Shown one piece after another: positions 2,533-56,996 of a stretch of 64,000 nt of DNA; position 1 is the first letter of the stretch; every line of letters starts with the position of its first letter. This stretch comes from a phage: sequence record NC_135728.1. One strand, 5' to 3'. Made by a program: the position numbers and the translations under genes. Under the pieces are notes generated by a model that did no database searches, was not told the DNA's origin, and worked only from the letters and a program-made list of their open reading frames with translations.

Positions 2533-5500
2533 TATTCAACACTCTCCATCATAAGTTGGGTATCTGTCAGCGCAGAGTTCCAAACTCTTATGTCCTTAAT
2601 ATGACCAAACAAATGTCTTTCTCCTGTTGCCGTTTGACCACCGATACGGATGAAAGCTCCTCCTGCCAGGAACTCCCAAGAAGACTGTGTTTCAGTGCTC
2701 ACCAGTCCGTTAGCAAAAGAGCAAGTTTTACCGTCTTCTTTTATCCTGAACCCCATCTTCAGTTTACGCGCTTTAGCCATCTCGTAGACACGTCTGTTTG
2801 ACCCTCCAATATCGCAGTATGGATACCCATCCTCTGCAATATTTGTTGCAGAACCAAACCCGAGAATAAAAGCTGCGCTCGTCTGGTGTCCTTCTGTGTC
2901 TATAACCCTAGGGGCTGCGTTAGGAGCTTTGCCCCAACCTCTCCAGTTAGCATCCACAGTAGCGGCGATAGTGAACGGTCTAGGTGCTAAGTTATCCGTC
3001 ATCGGGAATTTGCAAAGGTCTGCCGCTCTAGTTACAGGTGAAGATCCTGTGGGAATAAACGAGGACTCGCAAGAACCTAACTCAAATTGAGGTATTGCAA
3101 CATCAACCCAATCCCCTACAACATGCTGAGCACCTTCAGGTGGAGAAATCTGGAACTGGCACCCGATATTCTTGTCAGAGGCCACTGCCTCAAACGTAGC
3201 GGCAATCCTTACCCAAGCAGGTCCGGCTGTTTGCCATCTCTCAGCTTTTACTTTAATTCTCCCAGCTGCACCACCTGTTGTTTTAACTTCAAGTGTTGAC
3301 AGGTTAACATAAGCGTCACCTTGGAATACTGTGGTGGATCCGTCATACATGTCGAATCTTACACGTAATCTCTGGTTCGCTTTACCTCCCCTTGCAATAA
3401 TAGACCCAGTACAGAATTTCTCAGCACCTGTCACATCGGCACCTCTGGTGGCTGGAACTGTAGCAAGGTTTAACGCTGTTGTTTCCACACCGGATGCAGT
3501 GTTTACTGTAAATCTTGCACCTTTTGTGCCGTTGGTGTTTGTTACAGTACCACCAACAGTAATCTGTTGACTGGCTCCCCATTTACTAGGGTCTTCACTG
3601 TTAAGCATTAGGTTTGTCCTTTGCCCTTCAATAAGCAGACCATCTCTTTCAAACCGAGGATGATCGTTCTGAGCAGTAACCATCACACCGCGTTTAGAAA
3701 AGTATGTTGCTGTAGAAGGTCTGGAGAATACCATCTCTCCCTCACCAAGTGCAGGTTTTAAGTTGGAGGTCAAAGGTAACCAAAGATCAGGCATAACTGG
3801 GGCGGTTGTGCTTTCCGGGAAGCTTGTTCTCTTCCAAGGACTCCAAGCCATTCCACTACCAGTGTTATTATAATACCTTTCCCATGTTCCACCAAGGTAC
3901 ATCTTGTAGATCTGAATACAGCCCGTGCCCTCGTTAGCAGAGTTTCTAAGCACAATCAGCGTACCAGCCATCTGCTGTCCAGGCGGGTAATGTCTTTCAG
4001 CTGTAGCGTTAGCATTCGCCTCTTGATGGTAGATACCTTCACGATCTGCTTTATAATCGTTAAGGTCGCTATTCCCCAGTCCTTGACCACGGTGCTGAAT
4101 AACCTTGTTCCACGCTCTGTGATTTCCCTGCTCTATGGAACGGGTATATAGCTGATCTAATCGACCTGCTATCTGGAAAGCATAGTTCCCAGAGAATGCC
4201 ACAGACAACCCGCCAACAACCATCGAACCTTCAGGCCCGTTAACATTACCAGCCATTATTTTAGAAGGGTTGTTATTCCCGAACTGGTTGTTCCAGTCTG
4301 CACCTGTGTGGCATACAAAACCACCAGGAGCTGAGAAAGTGCCATCTTTGTTGAAGTTGTAGAATCTATGGGATGAACCAACAACATCTCTAACAATGAC
4401 CTGACCAGCCTCTGGGGTAGACCTGAACTCTGCCTGACCTTTGAGACCAGCACCATTACCGCATTTAGAGGTAAATGTACCGTTAGTTAAGTCCTCTGTC
4501 CCATCTGATGCACACTGGAATCCTGCATTAGAGAATAAAGCCTTTCTAGGGCTGCCGTAGCACAAATAGTCAAGACCGTCTGCCCATAGCTCGACTTTTG
4601 GCATATTCATTTTGCTCATCACAGCATAGCGTTCAGCAGTGCCTATATAGTGCCACTGTGTACCGCCGCCAGTGTAGAATCCAGAGGTACCTTTGAAGTC
4701 AACAATAGGTCTGGTGTTGGTATTGTTATCTCCAAGAACAGCAAGATTCAAATCTGCCGACTGGAGAGGTGCAACAAACTTAACCCCGTCCTGATTGTTT
4801 GTTACAGAACCAACCTGGTAGTCTTGTTCTTTGGTAAACACCTCTAAAACATTTCTACTTGCGTATATGCTGACAGGGAAAGCACGCGCCTCTGCATAGA
4901 AAGCAACATATTCTTGTTTACCCCTTGTTGGAGCAACCATCCCAAGAATTGCTTTTTCATTCTGGTAGAAATTTACTACTCCGTAGAAAGAGTCCCCTCT
5001 ATCTGTCCACCCACCAGTTCTATAATGACACTGTAAGGTAGCACAGTTCATGGGGTCACCACCAGATGACGACCTAGTAACTATGGTAATATCGGTGCCA
5101 GTAGCTGGAGCATAATACGGATCTGTTCTAACTATAATTGGGTAGTATTTCCCATCTTCCATCCCTGCGGTTCTTGGCAGCGTTAAGAAATCTTTTACGC
5201 CTGCAGCTATAGGAACTCTAAACAGATTCTGAGCCTCTGCCAAAGTTGTAGCCCCAGTACCACCTGCGGCTTGCGGTAAAGGTTCCCACTTGGCCTTCCG
5301 GTTGTTATAAACACCCCATTCCAGAGTGCCGTTACCGGATTCATCCATCCCGCCATCCCAGATGACCATCTTGGCGGCTTTCTTGGATCCCCAGAAGCCT
5401 CTTTCTGCTCCTGAACTACGGATCCACTCTCCGAGTCCCCAGTTTGTCAGCTGACCAGTAAGATCCCCAACCTGCATGTATTTAGGGCAGTCTAGCACGC

Positions 5501-28102: not shown

Positions 28103-28421
28103 CGTTTATGTTCGGGCAAGGTCGCTAGTCTTGCCCCGCCATTTTCAGGCAGCTGCATGTCTCCATGCAGACCAGACTATATCTTATAAGCGACAACAAC
28201 CGCTTACCCTCCCGTTTCGAATCGCTTGATTCTACGTCTCTCGACTAGTCGTTGAACGTTCATCCTCTCGGATGCTTCGCTGCGGATTATCTAAATTAAC
28301 ACACTGTTACCCTACCTTCGATCTCTCTTCGAAGCCTCTATCATGTTACCATGACAGGTTGGTGGTGTCAATAATAAAGATTTCCCCGCAATTAGGGAGG
28401 TTTTACGAGAGCTGCAAATTA
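28103..28421 (-). ncRNA. group I self-splicing intron (ORF-less, about 319 nt) interrupting the large terminase gene
   Basis: Minus-strand sense contains the four conserved group I core elements: P AATTGCGGGGAAA (plus 28381-28400 region), Q AATCCGCAGC (28279-28288), R GTTCAACGACTAGTC (28243-28257), S AAGATATAGTCTGG (28172-28185); in-frame stop right after the 5' splice site; intron ends in G. Confidence 0.8.
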
Positions 28422-28847
28422 ACCCTCATCGAAGCAAACCATGGTGTACTCAAGCCCCTGATGGTTAAGCTTATCTTGTACATACTCCATGTGGCAGTAT
28501 TTTACAACAGCTCCCTTTTTGCTTCTATCCCACTTACCAGTGTTCGGATCAAACCGTGGAAAAATGAACTTATGATCCTTCTCTCTGAACTTTGGCTTAA
28601 TGTTTTCAGGCAGATCACTATAAATAGCTACTGCTTTAGGCCATAGTCCACCCTCACCTTCCAACTGTGGGGTTGTTCTTCGGAACATAACCACAGAGCT
28701 GTGGGGGTCATCAATAATTTTAAGTGGCATCAACTGCAAGAGGAACGACTTGCCAGACCCTGCGGCACCTCCGATTACCAAAATATCTGCATCGTTTTCT
28801 AGGATCATCTTCTGCTTTTCAGAACACGGTCCGTAAATCTTAGACAT
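28422..28847 (-). CDS. terminase large subunit, exon 1 (ATPase half)
   Basis: Walker A GGAAGSGKS and Walker B VCFDE; ends at ...VCFDEG followed by an intron-borne stop. Confidence 0.8.
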
Positions 28848-29950: not shown

Positions 29951-30027
29951 TGGTCTCCACGGAGTGATTCGAACACTCGACCTCCTGATCCCAAATCAGG
30001 CGCTCTACCAAGCTGAGCTACGCGGAG
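29951..30027 (-). tRNA. tRNA-Pro (anticodon UGG)
   Basis: Manual fold: acceptor CTCCGCG/CGTGGAG, D-arm GCTCAGCTTGGTAGAGC, anticodon loop TTTGGGA, T-loop TTCGAAT, encoded CCA. Confidence 0.8.
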
Positions 30028-30038
30028 TATTTATAATT

Positions 30039-30113
30039 TGGTGGCCCTGGGTGGAATTGAACCACCATCTGGCGATTATGAGTCGCTTGCTTGAACCTTC
30101 CAGCTACAGGGCC
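30039..30113 (-). tRNA. tRNA-Met (anticodon CAU; could alternatively be a lysidine-modified Ile2-type)
   Basis: Manual fold: acceptor GGCCCTG/CAGGGCC, anticodon loop CTCATAA, T-arm GGTGGTTCAATTCCACC, encoded CCA. Confidence 0.75.
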
Positions 30114-30114
30114 A

Positions 30115-30190
30115 TGGTGCTGATGGCAGGACTTGAACCTGCAACCTATTGATTACAAATCAATTGCACTGCCAATTGTGCTACATCAGC
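30115..30190 (-). tRNA. tRNA-Thr (anticodon UGU)
   Basis: Manual fold: acceptor GCTGATG/CATCAGC, anticodon stem ATTGA/TCAAT with loop TTTGTAA, T-arm GCAGGTTCAAGTCCTGC, encoded CCA. Confidence 0.85.
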
Positions 30191-30196
30191 AAAAAG

Positions 30197-30294
30197 GTGC
30201 TAGGCGGTGGAATCGAACCACCTATGTATTCAACGACTACCTCGTCTATTTTCAGGATTAAAAATCCTCGCCCTTGCCAAAGGGCTTACCTAGC
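30197..30294 (-). tRNA. atypical tRNA-like gene (about 98 nt; canonical acceptor and T-arm, aberrant anticodon/variable region, CCA not fully encoded)
   Basis: Acceptor GCTAGGT/GCCTAGC and T-arm GGTGG-TTCGATT-CCACC are canonical; only a 4-bp AGGA/TCCT stem with loop TTTTTAA and a ~30-nt region before the T-arm; positions 8-9 are AA. Confidence 0.4.
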
Positions 30295-30392
30295 TCAGTA
30301 TGTTGACCATGTTGCTAGTCGGCGATGACGACTGTAACATTTGATAATCCGGTTCTGCTTCCGGCTTTCGCTTAATTACAAGGTCAACAATG

Positions 30393-30483
30393 TGGCGGAG
30401 AGTAATGGAATCGAACCATCATCGAGTCATCCTCAATGGGACGGTTTTCAAGACCGCTTGAGCACCATTGCTCCCTACCCTCC
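30393..30483 (-). tRNA. tRNA-Ser (anticodon UGA), class II with long variable arm
   Basis: Manual fold: acceptor GGAGGGT/ACTCTCC, anticodon stem GCGGT/ACCGT with loop CTTGAAA, long variable arm, T-loop TTCGATT, encoded CCA. Confidence 0.75.
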
Positions 30484-30598
30484 TTTATAAATTATACTGA
30501 TAATGACACTGATTTTCGAGCAGTTAGTGACTAGTATAAACGACGATAAATATCAATGCCATTATCTGTATTATTTACGCATCTAAAAAATATAAATT

Positions 30599-30685
30599 TG
30601 GTGGGGAGTGGTGGAGTCGAACCACCCGAGTCGCAATGACAATAGATTTACAGTCTACACCGCTACCTCTACGGGATAACTCCCC
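30599..30685 (-). tRNA. tRNA-Tyr (anticodon GUA), class II
   Basis: Manual fold: acceptor GGGGAGT/ACTCCCC, anticodon stem GTAGA/TCTAT with loop CTGTAAA, T-arm GGTGGTTCGACTCCACC, encoded CCA. Confidence 0.8.
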
Positions 30686-30689
30686 AATT

Positions 30690-30764
30690 TGGCACCCCGT
30701 ACTGGACTCGAACCAGTGTCAACGGCTTAGAAGGCCGCTGCTTTATCCACTAAGCTAACAGGGC
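30690..30764 (-). tRNA. tRNA-Arg (anticodon UCU)
   Basis: Manual fold: D-arm GCTTAGTGGATAAAGC, anticodon stem GCGGC/GCCGT with loop CTTCTAA, T-arm ACTGGTTCGAGTCCAGT, encoded CCA. Confidence 0.8.
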
Positions 30765-53389: not shown

Positions 53390-53668
53390 ATGAGCTGTGA
53401 AAAATCTTTTTTCTTTATTATTTACGGTAAAGATAACTGCCCACATTGTGTAAGAGCAAAAGAATTTGCAGTCAGTAAAGGTCTGCCTTTTGTATATAAG
53501 ACACTTGGAGAGGGATACACAAAAGAAGAGCTTATTGAGAAGTGTAGTCCAATCGTCCCAAGAACGTTACCGCAGATCTTCTTAGAAAGCGATCTTGATA
53601 GTGTCCATGTAGGTGGTGCCGACGATTTCATCTCTTTTGTTAAGAATGATTTTGGAGAGAAAAAGTGA
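53390..53668 (+). CDS. glutaredoxin/NrdH-like redoxin
   Basis: Redox-active CPHC motif near the N-terminus; placed between nrdB and nrdD. Confidence 0.75.
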   Translation: MSCEKSFFFIIYGKDNCPHCVRAKEFAVSKGLPFVYKTLGEGYTKEELIEKCSPIVPRTLPQIFLESDLDSVHVGGADDFISFVKNDFGEKK

Positions 53669-55788
53669 AAGTTGTAAAACGGGACGGTAGAGAAGAGGTC
53701 TATAACGGAATTAAGGTGATCAAGGCGGCAGAGTCCGCCTTACTTGAGTCTGGACATACTGAAGAAGAAGCTTACCGGATCGCCTGCGCGGTTAATGAAG
53801 TTGTTGCTAACAATCTACCAACCGACCAGTGCACGATCTCTGTAAAAAATATCCATATCCTTGTTGAAGACGCTCTTATGGATATGGGTTTAAAATGTGC
53901 AGCCAGAGAATACATCCAGTATAGGCAGACAAGAGATAATAACAGAGAGGCAGGTGGAAAACTGCTTGCAGATATTAGTGGCTTCTTGGATCGCACTTGT
54001 GATGAATTTACAAAAGAAAACGCAAATAAGCCTACCAACCATGTACACACTCATCGTGACCTGCTTGCAGGCATCCTTAGCAAACACCTTGCATCAACAC
54101 AGATCCTGCCAGACCGTGTCTCCGAAGAGCACAATAAAGGCTTCATCCATGTGCATGATCTTGATTATTTGATCAGTCCGTTAACAAACTGTTGTTTGGT
54201 AAATTATCCAGATATGCTGGAAAACGGATTCAACATTGGTAACGCCCATGTCAGTAAGCCGAAGTCAATAGGGGTTGCAACAACAATCCTTAGCCAAATC
54301 TCTAGTGCGGTAGCTAGTGCTCAATATGGCGGTCAGACTATGAGCCATATTGATCATTATCTGGCACAGTATGCTGAAGCAACCTATGAGAAGAACCTTA
54401 AATTTTGCCAGGAACATTGGTTGCCAGATGCTGAGACTGTTGCAATGCAAATGACAGATAAAGACGTATTTGACAGCATGCAGACTTTGCTCTATCAAAT
54501 CAATACGTTAACTTCTGTCAACGGGCAAACTCCATTCATTACATTAAGTTTGGGTCTGGACACCTCAGTATTTGGTAGAATGATTACCAAAAACTACTTG
54601 AAAGTCCACAAAATGGGTCTTGGTGAAGAACGTATCACACCTGTGTTCCCTAAAGTGCTGTTCTTCCTAGAAGAGGGTGTCAACATGAACCCTGGAGATC
54701 CTAACTATGATTTGAAACGATTAGCTCTGGAATGCTCTGCAGAGCGGATTTATCCTGACTTTGTTTCTGTTCCACTAAATCGTAAAGTGACAGGCTCGAC
54801 AGATGGCAAAGTAACGAGCATGGGTTGCCGGAGTTTTCTTAGCAAATACAATGACTTGGAAACAGGTGAGGAGAAATACCTCGGCAGATTCAATTTGGGT
54901 GTTGTTAGTCTTAACCTACCAATGATTGCGGCAAAAGCTAAGACGGAAGGTGTTGATTTCTTTGCCGTTCTTGACGAATACCTGGATCTTGCATACGAGG
55001 CTCACCTTGTAAGGGTTAACCGTCTAAAAGGAACAAAGGCAGGGCAGAACCCTATCATGTGGTGTGAAGGTGCTCTTGCTCGCCTGGATCCTGAAGAGAG
55101 TATTGATAAACTCTTCTATGACGGGTACGCTTCCATCAGTATTGGGTATATTGGTGTGTATGAAACCTGTCAGATTTTGGGCAGGGAGGGTGACAAGGCT
55201 TTAGCTCTTGGAATACTTCAGCACATGAGAGATGCTTGCGAGCGATACAAGAAGGAAAGTAGACTAGCGTTTAGCTTGTACGGCACCCCTTCTGAGAGTC
55301 TATGCTATAAAGCTGCAACCTGTCTGGATCGTGAATATCCTGAAGTGTTGAAGCACGAGCATGAATATCTCACCAACAGTTTCCATCAGCCAGTGTGGAT
55401 CAATAGCTCTCCTTTTGATAAGTGGGAATATGAGGAAGGTTTTGCTATGATCTCCTCTGGTGGCAACATCGGGTACGTAGAGACACCAAATCTGAAAAAC
55501 AACTTAGATGCTTTAGAGGCTCTTGTTGACTTCGGGTATAAACACATTATGTATTTTGGTATTAACCAACCTGTGGATAAATGTCTCAAGTGTGGTTTCT
55601 CTGGTGAGTTCAGTGCAACAGCTAAAGGCTTTGTATGCCCAGAGTGTGGAAACCATGAAGAGGGAACGATCAGTGTGATCAGACGTGTATCCGGGTACCT
55701 GTCTAGTCCAAACTCCCGTCCTTACAATAAAGGTAAGCAAGCGGAAGTTATCGAGCGGGTTAAGCACTATGGAAGTTGTAGTTGCTGA
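53665..55788 (+). CDS. nrdD: anaerobic ribonucleotide reductase (class III)
   Basis: N-terminal ATP-cone, C-terminal glycyl-radical motif RRVSGYL, zinc site CPECG. Confidence 0.9.
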   Translation: MKVVKRDGREEVYNGIKVIKAAESALLESGHTEEEAYRIACAVNEVVANNLPTDQCTISVKNIHILVEDALMDMGLKCAAREYIQYRQTRDNNREAGGKLLADISGFLDRTCDEFTKENANKPTNHVHTHRDLLAGILSKHLASTQILPDRVSEEHNKGFIHVHDLDYLISPLTNCCLVNYPDMLENGFNIGNAHVSKPKSIGVATTILSQISSAVASAQYGGQTMSHIDHYLAQYAEATYEKNLKFCQEHWLPDAETVAMQMTDKDVFDSMQTLLYQINTLTSVNGQTPFITLSLGLDTSVFGRMITKNYLKVHKMGLGEERITPVFPKVLFFLEEGVNMNPGDPNYDLKRLALECSAERIYPDFVSVPLNRKVTGSTDGKVTSMGCRSFLSKYNDLETGEEKYLGRFNLGVVSLNLPMIAAKAKTEGVDFFAVLDEYLDLAYEAHLVRVNRLKGTKAGQNPIMWCEGALARLDPEESIDKLFYDGYASISIGYIGVYETCQILGREGDKALALGILQHMRDACERYKKESRLAFSLYGTPSESLCYKAATCLDREYPEVLKHEHEYLTNSFHQPVWINSSPFDKWEYEEGFAMISSGGNIGYVETPNLKNNLDALEALVDFGYKHIMYFGINQPVDKCLKCGFSGEFSATAKGFVCPECGNHEEGTISVIRRVSGYLSSPNSRPYNKGKQAEVIERVKHYGSCSC

Positions 55789-55791
55789 TAC

Positions 55792-55822
55792 TTGACAAAA
55801 GCCACAAGGATGTGGCATATTA
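55792..55822 (+). promoter_or_regulatory. sigma70-like promoter with palindromic spacer (CCACAAGGATGTGG)
   Basis: TTGACA (55792-55797), spacer palindrome, CATATT/ATATTA; followed by RBS GGAGG and ATG at 55852. Confidence 0.5.
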
Positions 55823-55851
55823 TTGACACACAGTGAGCTAGGAGGTACAGT

Positions 55852-55968
55852 ATGTCTAAAGGTATTTATAAAATTTGCAAGTGTGGTTGTCGTTGCAATC
55901 TTCGTTGGTGCAAGGCACTTGATGATTTTATTTGGCATTGCCCTGAATGCGATGCGGAGTACTTATAA
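55852..55968 (+). CDS. small cysteine-rich protein (38 aa), possible zinc ribbon
   Basis: Not in ORF track (short); ATG with strong RBS (GGAGGT, 7 nt); encodes MSKGIYKICKCGCRCNLRWCKALDDFIWHCPECDAEYL. Confidence 0.5.
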   Translation: MSKGIYKICKCGCRCNLRWCKALDDFIWHCPECDAEYL

Positions 55969-56119
55969 GCATAAGGGGTCGAAATGCGGAAATCTATCAA
56001 GAAAATCAAGATAAGATTGTTGGTACTGAAGCGTAAGTATAAAAAGTTATACGGCTTCATTAAATGGACTTTTATAGGTTTATCTTGAATAGAAGCACAC
56101 CACAGAAGAGAGGTTCCTT

Positions 56120-56356
56120 ATGATAGGTGTCTGTGTAAAAGCTAACAGATGGTTTACATTCGGTAAGGATTACGAAATTATCTTTCATTCGGACAGAGCC
56201 ACAACAGTAGAAAGCGATGATGGGTGCTACTGGTTCGTTAGTTACCATGGTGATGGGTATTATAGATCTACTGATTCCAGAGGGGAAGAAGCTGTTTTCT
56301 TAGATAGAGCTTATTGTGGGCCTGAATATCCCTACCTCAAAGAGGATAAGGAATGA
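56120..56356 (+). CDS. hypothetical protein (78 aa)
   Basis: ORF track; start-stop overlaps nrdG. Confidence 0.45.
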   Translation: MIGVCVKANRWFTFGKDYEIIFHSDRATTVESDDGCYWFVSYHGDGYYRSTDSRGEEAVFLDRAYCGPEYPYLKEDKE

Positions 56357-56826
56357 ATGTTGTTAATATTATAGAGTGTAGCATGGTTGACGGCCCAGGC
56401 ATTAGGACAACGGTGTTCTGTTCTGGTTGCCCACATCACTGTGTCGGTTGCCAAAACAAAAGTGTTTGGTCACCAGCTAAAGGTGAACCGTTAACAAATG
56501 ACACTATTGAGAGTATACTTCACTCTATAGAGCCGAAACATATTACTGGCGTTACATTATGCGGTGGCGAACCTTTAGCGCCTTACAATATCGATGGTAT
56601 GTACTCGATCATTCGCGCTATCCGTGAACGCTTCGGCAACACAAAAACTATCTGGGTGTACACAGGGTATTTGTTTGAAGAGGTTCCCGATCACATTAAA
56701 GATAGTGTCGATTACATTATGGATGGTAAGTACGAAAAAGATAACCCTACCAAAAAAACCTTCAGAGGTAGTGATAACCAAAGAATGTTTAAAAAGGTAG
56801 CAGGCGGTTGGGTTCAGGTTGACTAA
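56353..56826 (+). CDS. nrdG: anaerobic ribonucleotide reductase activating protein (radical SAM)
   Basis: N-terminal CSGCPHHCVGC cysteine cluster; follows nrdD. Confidence 0.85.
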   Translation: MNVVNIIECSMVDGPGIRTTVFCSGCPHHCVGCQNKSVWSPAKGEPLTNDTIESILHSIEPKHITGVTLCGGEPLAPYNIDGMYSIIRAIRERFGNTKTIWVYTGYLFEEVPDHIKDSVDYIMDGKYEKDNPTKKTFRGSDNQRMFKKVAGGWVQVD

Positions 56827-56829
56827 TTG

Positions 56830-56859
56830 TTGACAAAGCTTTGTTAAGTTGGTTATAAT
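56830..56859 (+). promoter_or_regulatory. sigma70-like promoter
   Basis: TTGACA (56830-56835), 17-18 bp spacer, TTATAAT; followed by RBS GAGGAGG and ATG at 56883. Confidence 0.6.
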
Positions 56860-56882
56860 TAGGAAAGCAGAGGAGGTGCCAA

Positions 56883-56996
56883 ATGGCTAAAAAAGCCTTG
56901 AAGAAGGCGTACAAAAAAGAAATTGCGCTTGAGCTTAAGAAAAAACACAAGCGTGAAAAGAAACATCATGAGGATGAAGAGGGGGTGCAACAGTGA
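56883..56996 (+). CDS. small highly basic protein (37 aa)
   Basis: Not in ORF track (short); strong promoter and RBS upstream; MAKKALKKAYKKEIALELKKKHKREKKHHEDEEGVQQ. Confidence 0.45.
   Translation: MAKKALKKAYKKEIALELKKKHKREKKHHEDEEGVQQ

Follow-up and report, generated by a model that had tools for sequence, protein, structure and literature searches.

A conserved seven-cysteine small gene of rV5-like coliphages, a candidate mobile accessory cassette

Micro-proteins that consist of a single zinc-finger domain with two C(P)XCG motifs, such as HVO_0758 and HVO_2753 of Haloferax volcanii, are a known kind of very small protein (PMC11241148, PMC10716476). In our analysis of the phage sequence record NC_135728.1 (64,000 nucleotides, referred to here as the window) a 38-codon open reading frame (ORF) at 55852 to 55968, between nrdD, which encodes a class III (anaerobic) ribonucleotide reductase (RNR), and nrdG, which encodes its activase, was found to specify a peptide with seven cysteines that resembles these proteins. 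PMC11241148 also reports that some micro-proteins with two C(P)XCG motifs do not bind zinc, and zinc binding of the seven-cysteine peptide is therefore not to be assumed. The window belongs to an rV5-like coliphage (Vequintavirus), and the region is 95-97% identical to APECc02 and to rV5/V5. Phages of the rV5-like group have been used in the biocontrol of Escherichia coli O157 and are represented in the BASEL collection. On comparative evidence the ORF is a genuine, strongly conserved small phage gene. Its cysteine pattern is conserved and its movement between phages does not depend on that of the RNR genes; for the peptide we infer metal binding, the fold and the binding of a partner. A preliminary description of the locus, made from the window alone, had reported the ORF and an excellent ribosome-binding site, and both the reading frame, with its ATG start, and the strong AGGAGG ahead of it are borne out (Table 1).

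The same description had counted eight cysteines. There are seven, at positions 9, 11, 13, 15, 20, 30 and 33, and all seven are invariant across the variants of the gene, as are G12, an N-L-R-W motif, L-D-D, I-W, P31 and E-Y-L. The single histidine it listed is present as His29, but it cannot be counted as a conserved ligand because several homologues have Tyr at this position. The CxC spacing it pointed out holds for the window ORF, while in two diverged homologues the first knuckle is CxxC. The outer knuckles, C9/C11 (C-x(1-2)-C-G) and C30-P-x-C33, lie 18 residues apart and the second is preceded by (W/I)-(H/Y); in all variants the two invariant Cys pairs keep a separation within the range of ~12-20 residues that defines a two-knuckle domain. 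Across the family the product is 36-54 aa long with a conserved core of 32 residues. These features are shared with the HVO_0758/HVO_2753 class, whose members are shorter than 70 aa, form a stand-alone domain with no enzyme part, and have a C-x(1-2)-C-G and a C-P-x-C-(D/G/N) knuckle with an aromatic residue before the second. Unlike that class, the peptide described here is phage-encoded, may use CxC as its first knuckle, and has the extra cysteines 13, 15 and 20. These inner cysteines, two of them in a CxCGCxC run, never vary, and ordinary zinc ribbons have nothing equivalent. The motif agrees with a two-knuckle mini-domain of zinc-ribbon or rubredoxin type to which three cysteines are added, a small metal-binding protein is a well supported reading of the pattern, and C13, C15 and C20 probably complete a second or a bridged (binuclear) metal site.

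Searches of Pfam, NCBIfam and PDB sequences gave nothing significant, and no sequence homology of the peptide to a named family was detected in them. The best match among solved structures was the second zinc-ribbon knuckle of eL43, 'IWHCPKCG', which is non-significant (E=0.47), and hhalign comparisons with known families gave generic knuckle-level matches only. Several candidates were considered and rejected. The bacterial metallothionein SmtA/BmtA (PF02069, PDB 1JJD) has a superficial likeness in the order CxCx(1-2)CxCN, then KA(I/L)D, then two aromatic residues and Cys, and a Smith-Waterman score of 50 against 27 +/- 5 for shuffled sequences (p ~0.002, for a comparison chosen post hoc). It was rejected by profile-profile comparison: hhalign gave 3.7% against SmtA and 1.1% against an alignment of 11 BmtA family sequences, and there was no Pfam PF02069 match. 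The matched non-Cys residues are, moreover, unconserved in the BmtA family, and the seven-cysteine peptide does not have the C-terminal half that bears the His ligands. NrdR, which combines a C4 zinc ribbon with an ATP-cone, was rejected since the peptide has 38 aa and no ATP-cone, with an hhalign probability of 9.7%; HCPxC is all that aligns. The phage Mu Com type was rejected at 6.4%, together with the observation that the sequences downstream of the gene are unrelated between arrangements. A precursor of a ribosomally synthesized and post-translationally modified peptide (SCIFF/ranthipeptides) has no NCBIfam match; the neighbouring NrdG (157 aa, Fer4_12) is without SPASM, and copies of the gene with no radical-SAM (S-adenosylmethionine) neighbour further rule this out. 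An hhalign value of 89.6% (score 32.2) was obtained with an 85-aa zinc-ribbon family (alignment A3) whose member in the unrelated viral contig L012 is encoded 5' of nrdG. Clostridial rubredoxin scores alike against the A3 family (85.9%, score 31.9), which suggests that the match reflects generic knuckle similarity. The A3 family, found in uncultured phages (L012 2721..2975), is itself of C4 type with the pattern G, CDRCG, W, CPxC, F, in which four Cys and one Gly are invariant; two of its contexts are beside nrdG and two beside ThyX or dUTPase genes, and it has no PHROG or Pfam assignment.

The evidence that the ORF is a coding gene comes from the window and from its relatives. Only 2 of the 404 window ORFs of 30-60 aa in six frames have at least seven cysteines, and a strong Shine-Dalgarno sequence precedes 4 of the 404; the seven-cysteine ORF has both. 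The other cysteine-rich short ORF, at 3421..3582 on the - strand, is a chance ORF that lies out of frame within a 1479-aa gene. For the comparative analysis 17 fetched loci were added to the window, giving 18 sequences with 12 distinct DNA versions of a 28-codon core. Among these 12 versions the variable sites fall at codon positions 1, 2 and 3 in the numbers 9, 4 and 19, and pairwise ratios of nonsynonymous to synonymous change (dN/dS) are 0.01-0.25, with synonymous differences of up to ~0.8 per site, near saturation. All length differences preserve the frame and fall at the N-terminus only, which reads MSKGIY, MSSGGFKV or MAVF or carries ~16 additional residues rich in Lys and Glu. The frame is the only one open in all relatives, each other frame having stops in some close relative, and a Shine-Dalgarno sequence is found ahead of the ORF in every lineage. 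Conservation of the reading frame in related phages had been proposed as a check in the preliminary description, and the frame is intact in 18/18 sequences under strong purifying selection. For a gene of 38 codons this comparative support is, in our view, as strong as it can be. It also bears on the idea that the ORF arose by chance or is a decaying fragment, either of a duplicated NrdD zinc ribbon or of a homing endonuclease. The ORF is very short, it lies in a region rich in homing endonucleases and it has CPEC in common with the NrdD C-terminus, all of which might be expected of such a remnant. A dN/dS of ~0.05, the intact frame and the transfer of the gene between phage families speak against it, and this explanation is effectively refuted by the selection analysis.

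A duplicated NrdD zinc ribbon was also rejected on similarity, which is at background level (p ~0.03 against shuffled sequences; hhalign 21-24% against the NrdD C-terminus). Pfam and NCBIfam gave no homology to NRDD, glycyl-radical or radical-SAM activase (CxxxCxxC) proteins, and in BLASTP the peptide has nothing but CPEC in common with the window NrdD. Read-through fusion to nrdD was likewise discarded: although nrdD and the ORF share a frame, it is interrupted by two stop codons, and the link is missing in other arrangements. Two disrupted copies were observed. In P0007 (62 aa, from a 1.4-kb ENA contig) a deletion fuses residues 1-20 of the peptide to the C-terminal part of the downstream ORF116, and in P0002 (phage vB_Eco_Alma) a frameshift after Cys33 replaces the EYL tail; in either case the cause may be natural inactivation of the gene or faulty assembly.

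The gene is confined to phages in our searches. The peptide was matched by tblastn in 125 phage records, nearly all of them rV5-like and 80-100% identical, and it matches phrog_20137 (PHROGs v4) over its full length (residues 1-38 against profile positions 1-38, E=5.3e-31). A phmmer search of 1.84 billion protein representatives indicated a narrow, phage-only family with 3 real clusters; the remaining matches were spurious, long repeat proteins whose scores were summed over repeats. All seven clusters returned by a word-indexed search belong to the same family, and a scan of 185,579 bacterial and archaeal GTDB genomes found no copy of the ORF. Weak tblastn matches in Acidithiobacillus and Gordonia phages (E ~10) were put down to chance.

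Outside the rV5-like phages a copy with 77% amino acid identity is present in Vectrevirus podophages (K1E-like Autographiviridae), namely ACG-C91 and three metagenomic contigs, which have no nrdD or nrdG. Here it lies between a nucleotide-kinase gene like SP6 gp24 and a DNA-ligase gene, and DNA similarity to the myophage copies does not extend past the ORF. Among the loci compared (L038-L042, L027) this kinase-ligase slot occurs in four states: it is empty, with a 1-nt gap, in P433.1; it has the seven-cysteine ORF, of 36 aa, in ACG-C91; in K1E it has an unrelated 38-aa C4 zinc ribbon; and in vB_EcoP_B and PDP21P6 it has a 57-aa protein without cysteines. For each insert, the seven-cysteine ORF included, a single nucleotide separates the kinase stop from the start, and the end overlaps the ATG of the ligase gene, which makes the insertions or deletions exactly ORF-sized. 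The K1E ribbon (AQY55013.1) resembles the seven-cysteine ORF in length class, in slot and in start/stop geometry, and its CxxCG-17-CxxCD spacing is identical; in contrast, it has four cysteines, and outside the knuckles there is no significant similarity (hhalign 28-46%). The two may be very diverged homologues or analogues. In the rV5-like phages, too, blocks of homology end where the ORF does, at 55840 and ~55972, and homology with the inoa-type phages begins exactly at the Shine-Dalgarno sequence (55840). In these comparisons the gene behaves as an optional accessory cassette and not as an enzyme subunit. It offers an example of a ~110-bp gene that moves as a unit between the unrelated coliphage families Vequintavirus and Vectrevirus, and the cassette may slot in with translational coupling to whichever gene follows.

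We therefore favor, with a probability of roughly 0.55, the reading that the gene is an ORF-sized mobile accessory cassette for a metal-stabilized, partner-binding mini-protein. The gene would be translated into a mini-domain in which C9/C11 and C30/C33 make up a site of zinc-ribbon type, stabilizing the domain, and C13, C15 and C20 are possible extra ligands. Such a domain would act as a stand-alone binding module, made together with early or middle genes of nucleotide and DNA metabolism, and its partner would most likely be an E. coli host factor or a generic component of replication or the nucleotide pool that is common to both phage groups. The only common denominators of the two lineages are the E. 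coli host and the neighborhood of nucleotide and DNA metabolism genes, which makes a host or generic partner likelier than phage NrdD or NrdG. Provided that the product is made and does bind metal, it would add to the very small phage proteins of zinc-ribbon type whose function is not known.

Some observations weigh against this reading. The AlphaFold2 model, built on a shallow alignment, is of low confidence, with a mean pLDDT (predicted local distance difference test) of 59.5, a pTM (predicted template modeling score) of 0.26 and two short strands only, and because of this the fold is deduced from the motif alone. All rV5-like genomes examined, including uncultured relatives that are ~76% identical in DNA, have the ORF in the nrdD-nrdG interval, and in every rV5-like lineage examined its position upstream of nrdG has been kept through the replacement of both neighbors. 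The constancy of this location may point to a real link in function with class III RNR. The podophage neighbors are also nucleotide-metabolism genes, and a role in the nucleotide pool may be possible.

The most specific form of such a tie is that the protein is a dedicated accessory of class III RNR, acting as a mini-rubredoxin-like electron donor, as a factor that delivers metal to the [4Fe-4S] cluster of NrdG, or as a partner of NrdD. The gene occupies the nrdD-nrdG interval in ~118 rV5-like records and in diverged relatives, and the CxxCG and CPxC knuckles of the peptide resemble those of rubredoxin. The stop codon and the nrdG start share an ATGA in phages of the FFH2/FV3 type and in L024/L026. 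However, the Vectrevirus phages have the gene with neither nrdD nor nrdG, and its occurrence in phages without class III RNR makes a role dedicated to that enzyme improbable. The converse also occurs: in the viral contigs L002 and L003, whose NrdG is 82-84% identical, the nrdD-nrdG interval has other genes and no seven-cysteine ORF, and in T4-type and most other phages the two genes are annotated as adjacent, without such a gene. Three nrdG alleles are found beside the ORF, the rV5 type (only 32 records), the FV3 type (52% identical to the rV5 type) and a third in L024/L026, and the peptide is ~90% or more identical beside the two commonest and 84% identical beside the third. As the ORF is little changed beside divergent nrdG alleles, there is no sign of co-evolution. 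In the window, moreover, two further ORFs separate it from nrdG, and a hairpin and a promoter-like site follow nrdD. We consider a dedicated RNR accessory unlikely, and the stable junction position keeps a link to RNR only faintly alive. The preliminary description had placed the ORF inside the anaerobic RNR operon, between nrdD and nrdG, as a metal-binding accessory protein or regulator. Its position is right, with the correction that a 34-aa and a 78-aa ORF also intervene before nrdG. The functional claim is unsupported as a specific one, given the copies in phages without nrdD/nrdG, the absence from L002 and L003, the lack of signs of co-evolution with nrdG alleles and of similarity to NrdD, NrdG or NrdR past a generic CPxC knuckle, and the hairpin and promoter-like site.

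A variant of this idea is that the 32-residue core forms a minimal redox or metal-cluster protein, binuclear Zn/Fe or Fe-S, that boosts the supply of deoxynucleotides in the anaerobic gut by passing electrons or metal to NrdG, or neutralizes a host limiter of the nucleotide pool. If it fed the host NrdG as well, podophage copies without their own nrdDG would be explained. We regard this variant as quite improbable; if true, the cassette would be a portable new accessory component of class III RNR biology.

The region around the gene is variable in other respects, and the exchange of neighbors around an ORF that is itself retained speaks against a link to RNR. Among rV5-like phages there are two nrdD 3' ends and nrdD genes split by group I introns or HNH elements. 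In FFH2, L025 and L026 nrdD is split by an insert that contains an HNH endonuclease, and in inoa-type phages a 310-aa T5orf172/DUF723 homing endonuclease is inserted between nrdD and the seven-cysteine ORF. The nrdD-nrdG region of rV5-like phages (L020, L021, L024-L026) appears as a hot spot for mobile elements and allele swapping.

A small zinc finger that binds nucleic acid could also regulate the gene that follows it, in the manner of Mu Com or of the NrdR ribbon. The N-terminal half of the peptide is basic (+6), the NLRW motif is conserved, and the ORF lies immediately 5' of the next gene and often overlaps it. Against this, the downstream gene and its 5' sequence differ wholly between arrangements (ORF115, three nrdG alleles, the ligase gene), with no common RNA or DNA target accompanying the ORF, and hhalign gives 6% against Mu Com and 10% against NrdR, whose ATP-cone domain is missing. 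We assign a low probability to this explanation. Alternatively the ORF might be a regulatory leader or upstream ORF in which translation itself matters, by coupling or by cysteine-sensing attenuation, and not the peptide. The ATGA overlap with the downstream gene in three arrangements and the 7 Cys codons in 38 would suit such a role. Against it, purifying selection acts on the whole peptide, including NLRW, LDDFIW and EYL, as the 9/4/19 distribution of variable sites over codon positions also reflects; the window type does not overlap the next gene, and the overlapping arrangements have no alternative hairpins downstream. A leader is accordingly very improbable.

The candidate expression signals just downstream of nrdD (Table 1) differ between lineages. 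The stem of the hairpin, which is terminator- or attenuator-like, co-varies while its AGGA loop is kept, with GAGAGCA/TGCTCTC in inoa and GAGCACA/TGTGCTC in L025; it was located at L020 2420-2452 and L025 3960-3977. With 14 T in a row behind it, the inoa hairpin has the form of a classic intrinsic terminator; the tail of the window hairpin consists only of ATATTATT. The promoter-like site overlaps the hairpin and is identical in FFH2. It is missing upstream of the ORF in inoa and Vectrevirus, which indicates that it is not part of the mobile unit. Both signals are no more than matches to a consensus, and the ORF moves without them; in the window they suggest that the ORF is not simply co-transcribed with nrdD. 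Rfam gave no RNA family at the locus.

Table 1. Features of the window around the seven-cysteine gene, including the overlapping frame called in the rV5 record.
Feature	Position	Strand	Remarks
nrdD, class III ribonucleotide reductase	53665..55788	+	Pfam NRDD 4.7e-161, Gly_radical, ATP-cone
Sigma-70-like promoter match	55792..55821	+	TTGACA, 18 nt, TG-n-CATATT; 10/12 consensus, extended -10 TG; predicted
Hairpin GCCACA-AGGA-TGTGGC	55801..55816	+	just 3' of nrdD stop; terminator- or attenuator-like
rV5 ORF114 (overlapping frame)	55823..56014	+	DQ832317.1 87773..88000
Shine-Dalgarno AGGAGG	55840..55845	+	direct sequence reading; 6 nt 5' of the seven-cysteine ORF ATG
Seven-cysteine gene, 38 codons + stop	55852..55968	+	ATG start; translation MSKGIYKICKCGCRCNLRWCKALDDFIWHCPECDAEYL; member of phrog_20137
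34-aa very basic ORF (rV5 ORF115)	55984..56088	+	16 nt 3' of the seven-cysteine gene
78-aa ORF (rV5 ORF116)	56120..56356	+	phrog_3249, function unknown; 'putative minor capsid protein' in records
nrdG, radical-SAM activase of NrdD	56353..56826	+	157 aa; Pfam Fer4_12 7e-39, Radical_SAM; phrog_626
Sigma-70 consensus promoter (P118 in rV5 annotation)	56830-56859	+	12/12 consensus; within 56830..56996

The treatment of the gene in public records is uneven. The preliminary description called it unannotated, which is true in part: FFH2 (ORF107), APECc02, inoa (inoa_69) and other records annotate it, and a PHROG exists for it, whereas it is unannotated or replaced by another frame in rV5, FV3, ACG-C91 and others. 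Records that leave it out include FV3, slur16, ACG-C91 and others. The rV5 record calls the overlapping ORF114 instead. The ORF114 frame is broken by stops in L030, L025 and the Vectrevirus copies, and the third-position variation of the seven-cysteine frame falls on second codon positions of ORF114. It is therefore very likely, from the pattern of substitutions and stops, that ORF114 is a mis-called gene and that the wrong frame is annotated at this locus in the rV5 reference record.

Where the gene is annotated, it is often labeled 'ribonucleotide reductase' or 'putative anaerobic ribonucleoside-triphosphate reductase'. The phrog_20137 label is also 'ribonucleotide reductase', for which we found no sequence support in this analysis, and the best match of the K1E zinc-ribbon ORF, weak at E=2.8e-4, is phrog_13972, whose label 'DNA ligase' is likewise without sequence support. 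Both labels match neighboring genes, and we take the names to be derived from the neighborhood. The phrog_20137 label was probably passed on from neighborhood-based record annotations. The gene is thus already in the databases, uncharacterized and, on present evidence, mislabeled, and these labels should not be propagated. A search of the literature on nrdD/nrdG of rV5 and Vequintavirus, on transcriptomes and on small zinc proteins found nothing on the ORF. Among the database records, some ~18-23 GenBank entries of the MG0656xx series (e.g. MG065644.1, MG065690.1, MG065654.1) are named 'Campylobacter phage' with the host Campylobacter jejuni. They are 95-97% identical to rV5-like coliphages across the region, and the Campylobacter host label looks doubtful.

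Of the neighboring genes, nrdD is present in full in the window, and its product has a C-terminal Zn ribbon of its own as well as the glycyl-radical motif. The translation of ORF115 is MRKSIKKIKIRLLVLKRKYKKLYGFIKWTFIGLS. This ORF is kept in L025, a lineage ~76% identical in DNA, where the C-terminal 24 residues are nearly identical; comparison with PHROGs gave no match, and ORF115 may be another real micro-gene. ORF116 is missing from FFH2-type phages and from L025, and its capsid label in the records stands against a PHROG with no assigned function. Downstream of nrdG, the P118 promoter precedes a 37-aa ORF rich in Lys and Glu (rV5 ORF118, phrog_7670, function unknown) that has a strong Shine-Dalgarno sequence. 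Rfam matches on the - strand elsewhere in the window, at 28153..28457 and 29954..30764, are to a catalytic group I intron (79 bits) and to five clustered tRNA genes.

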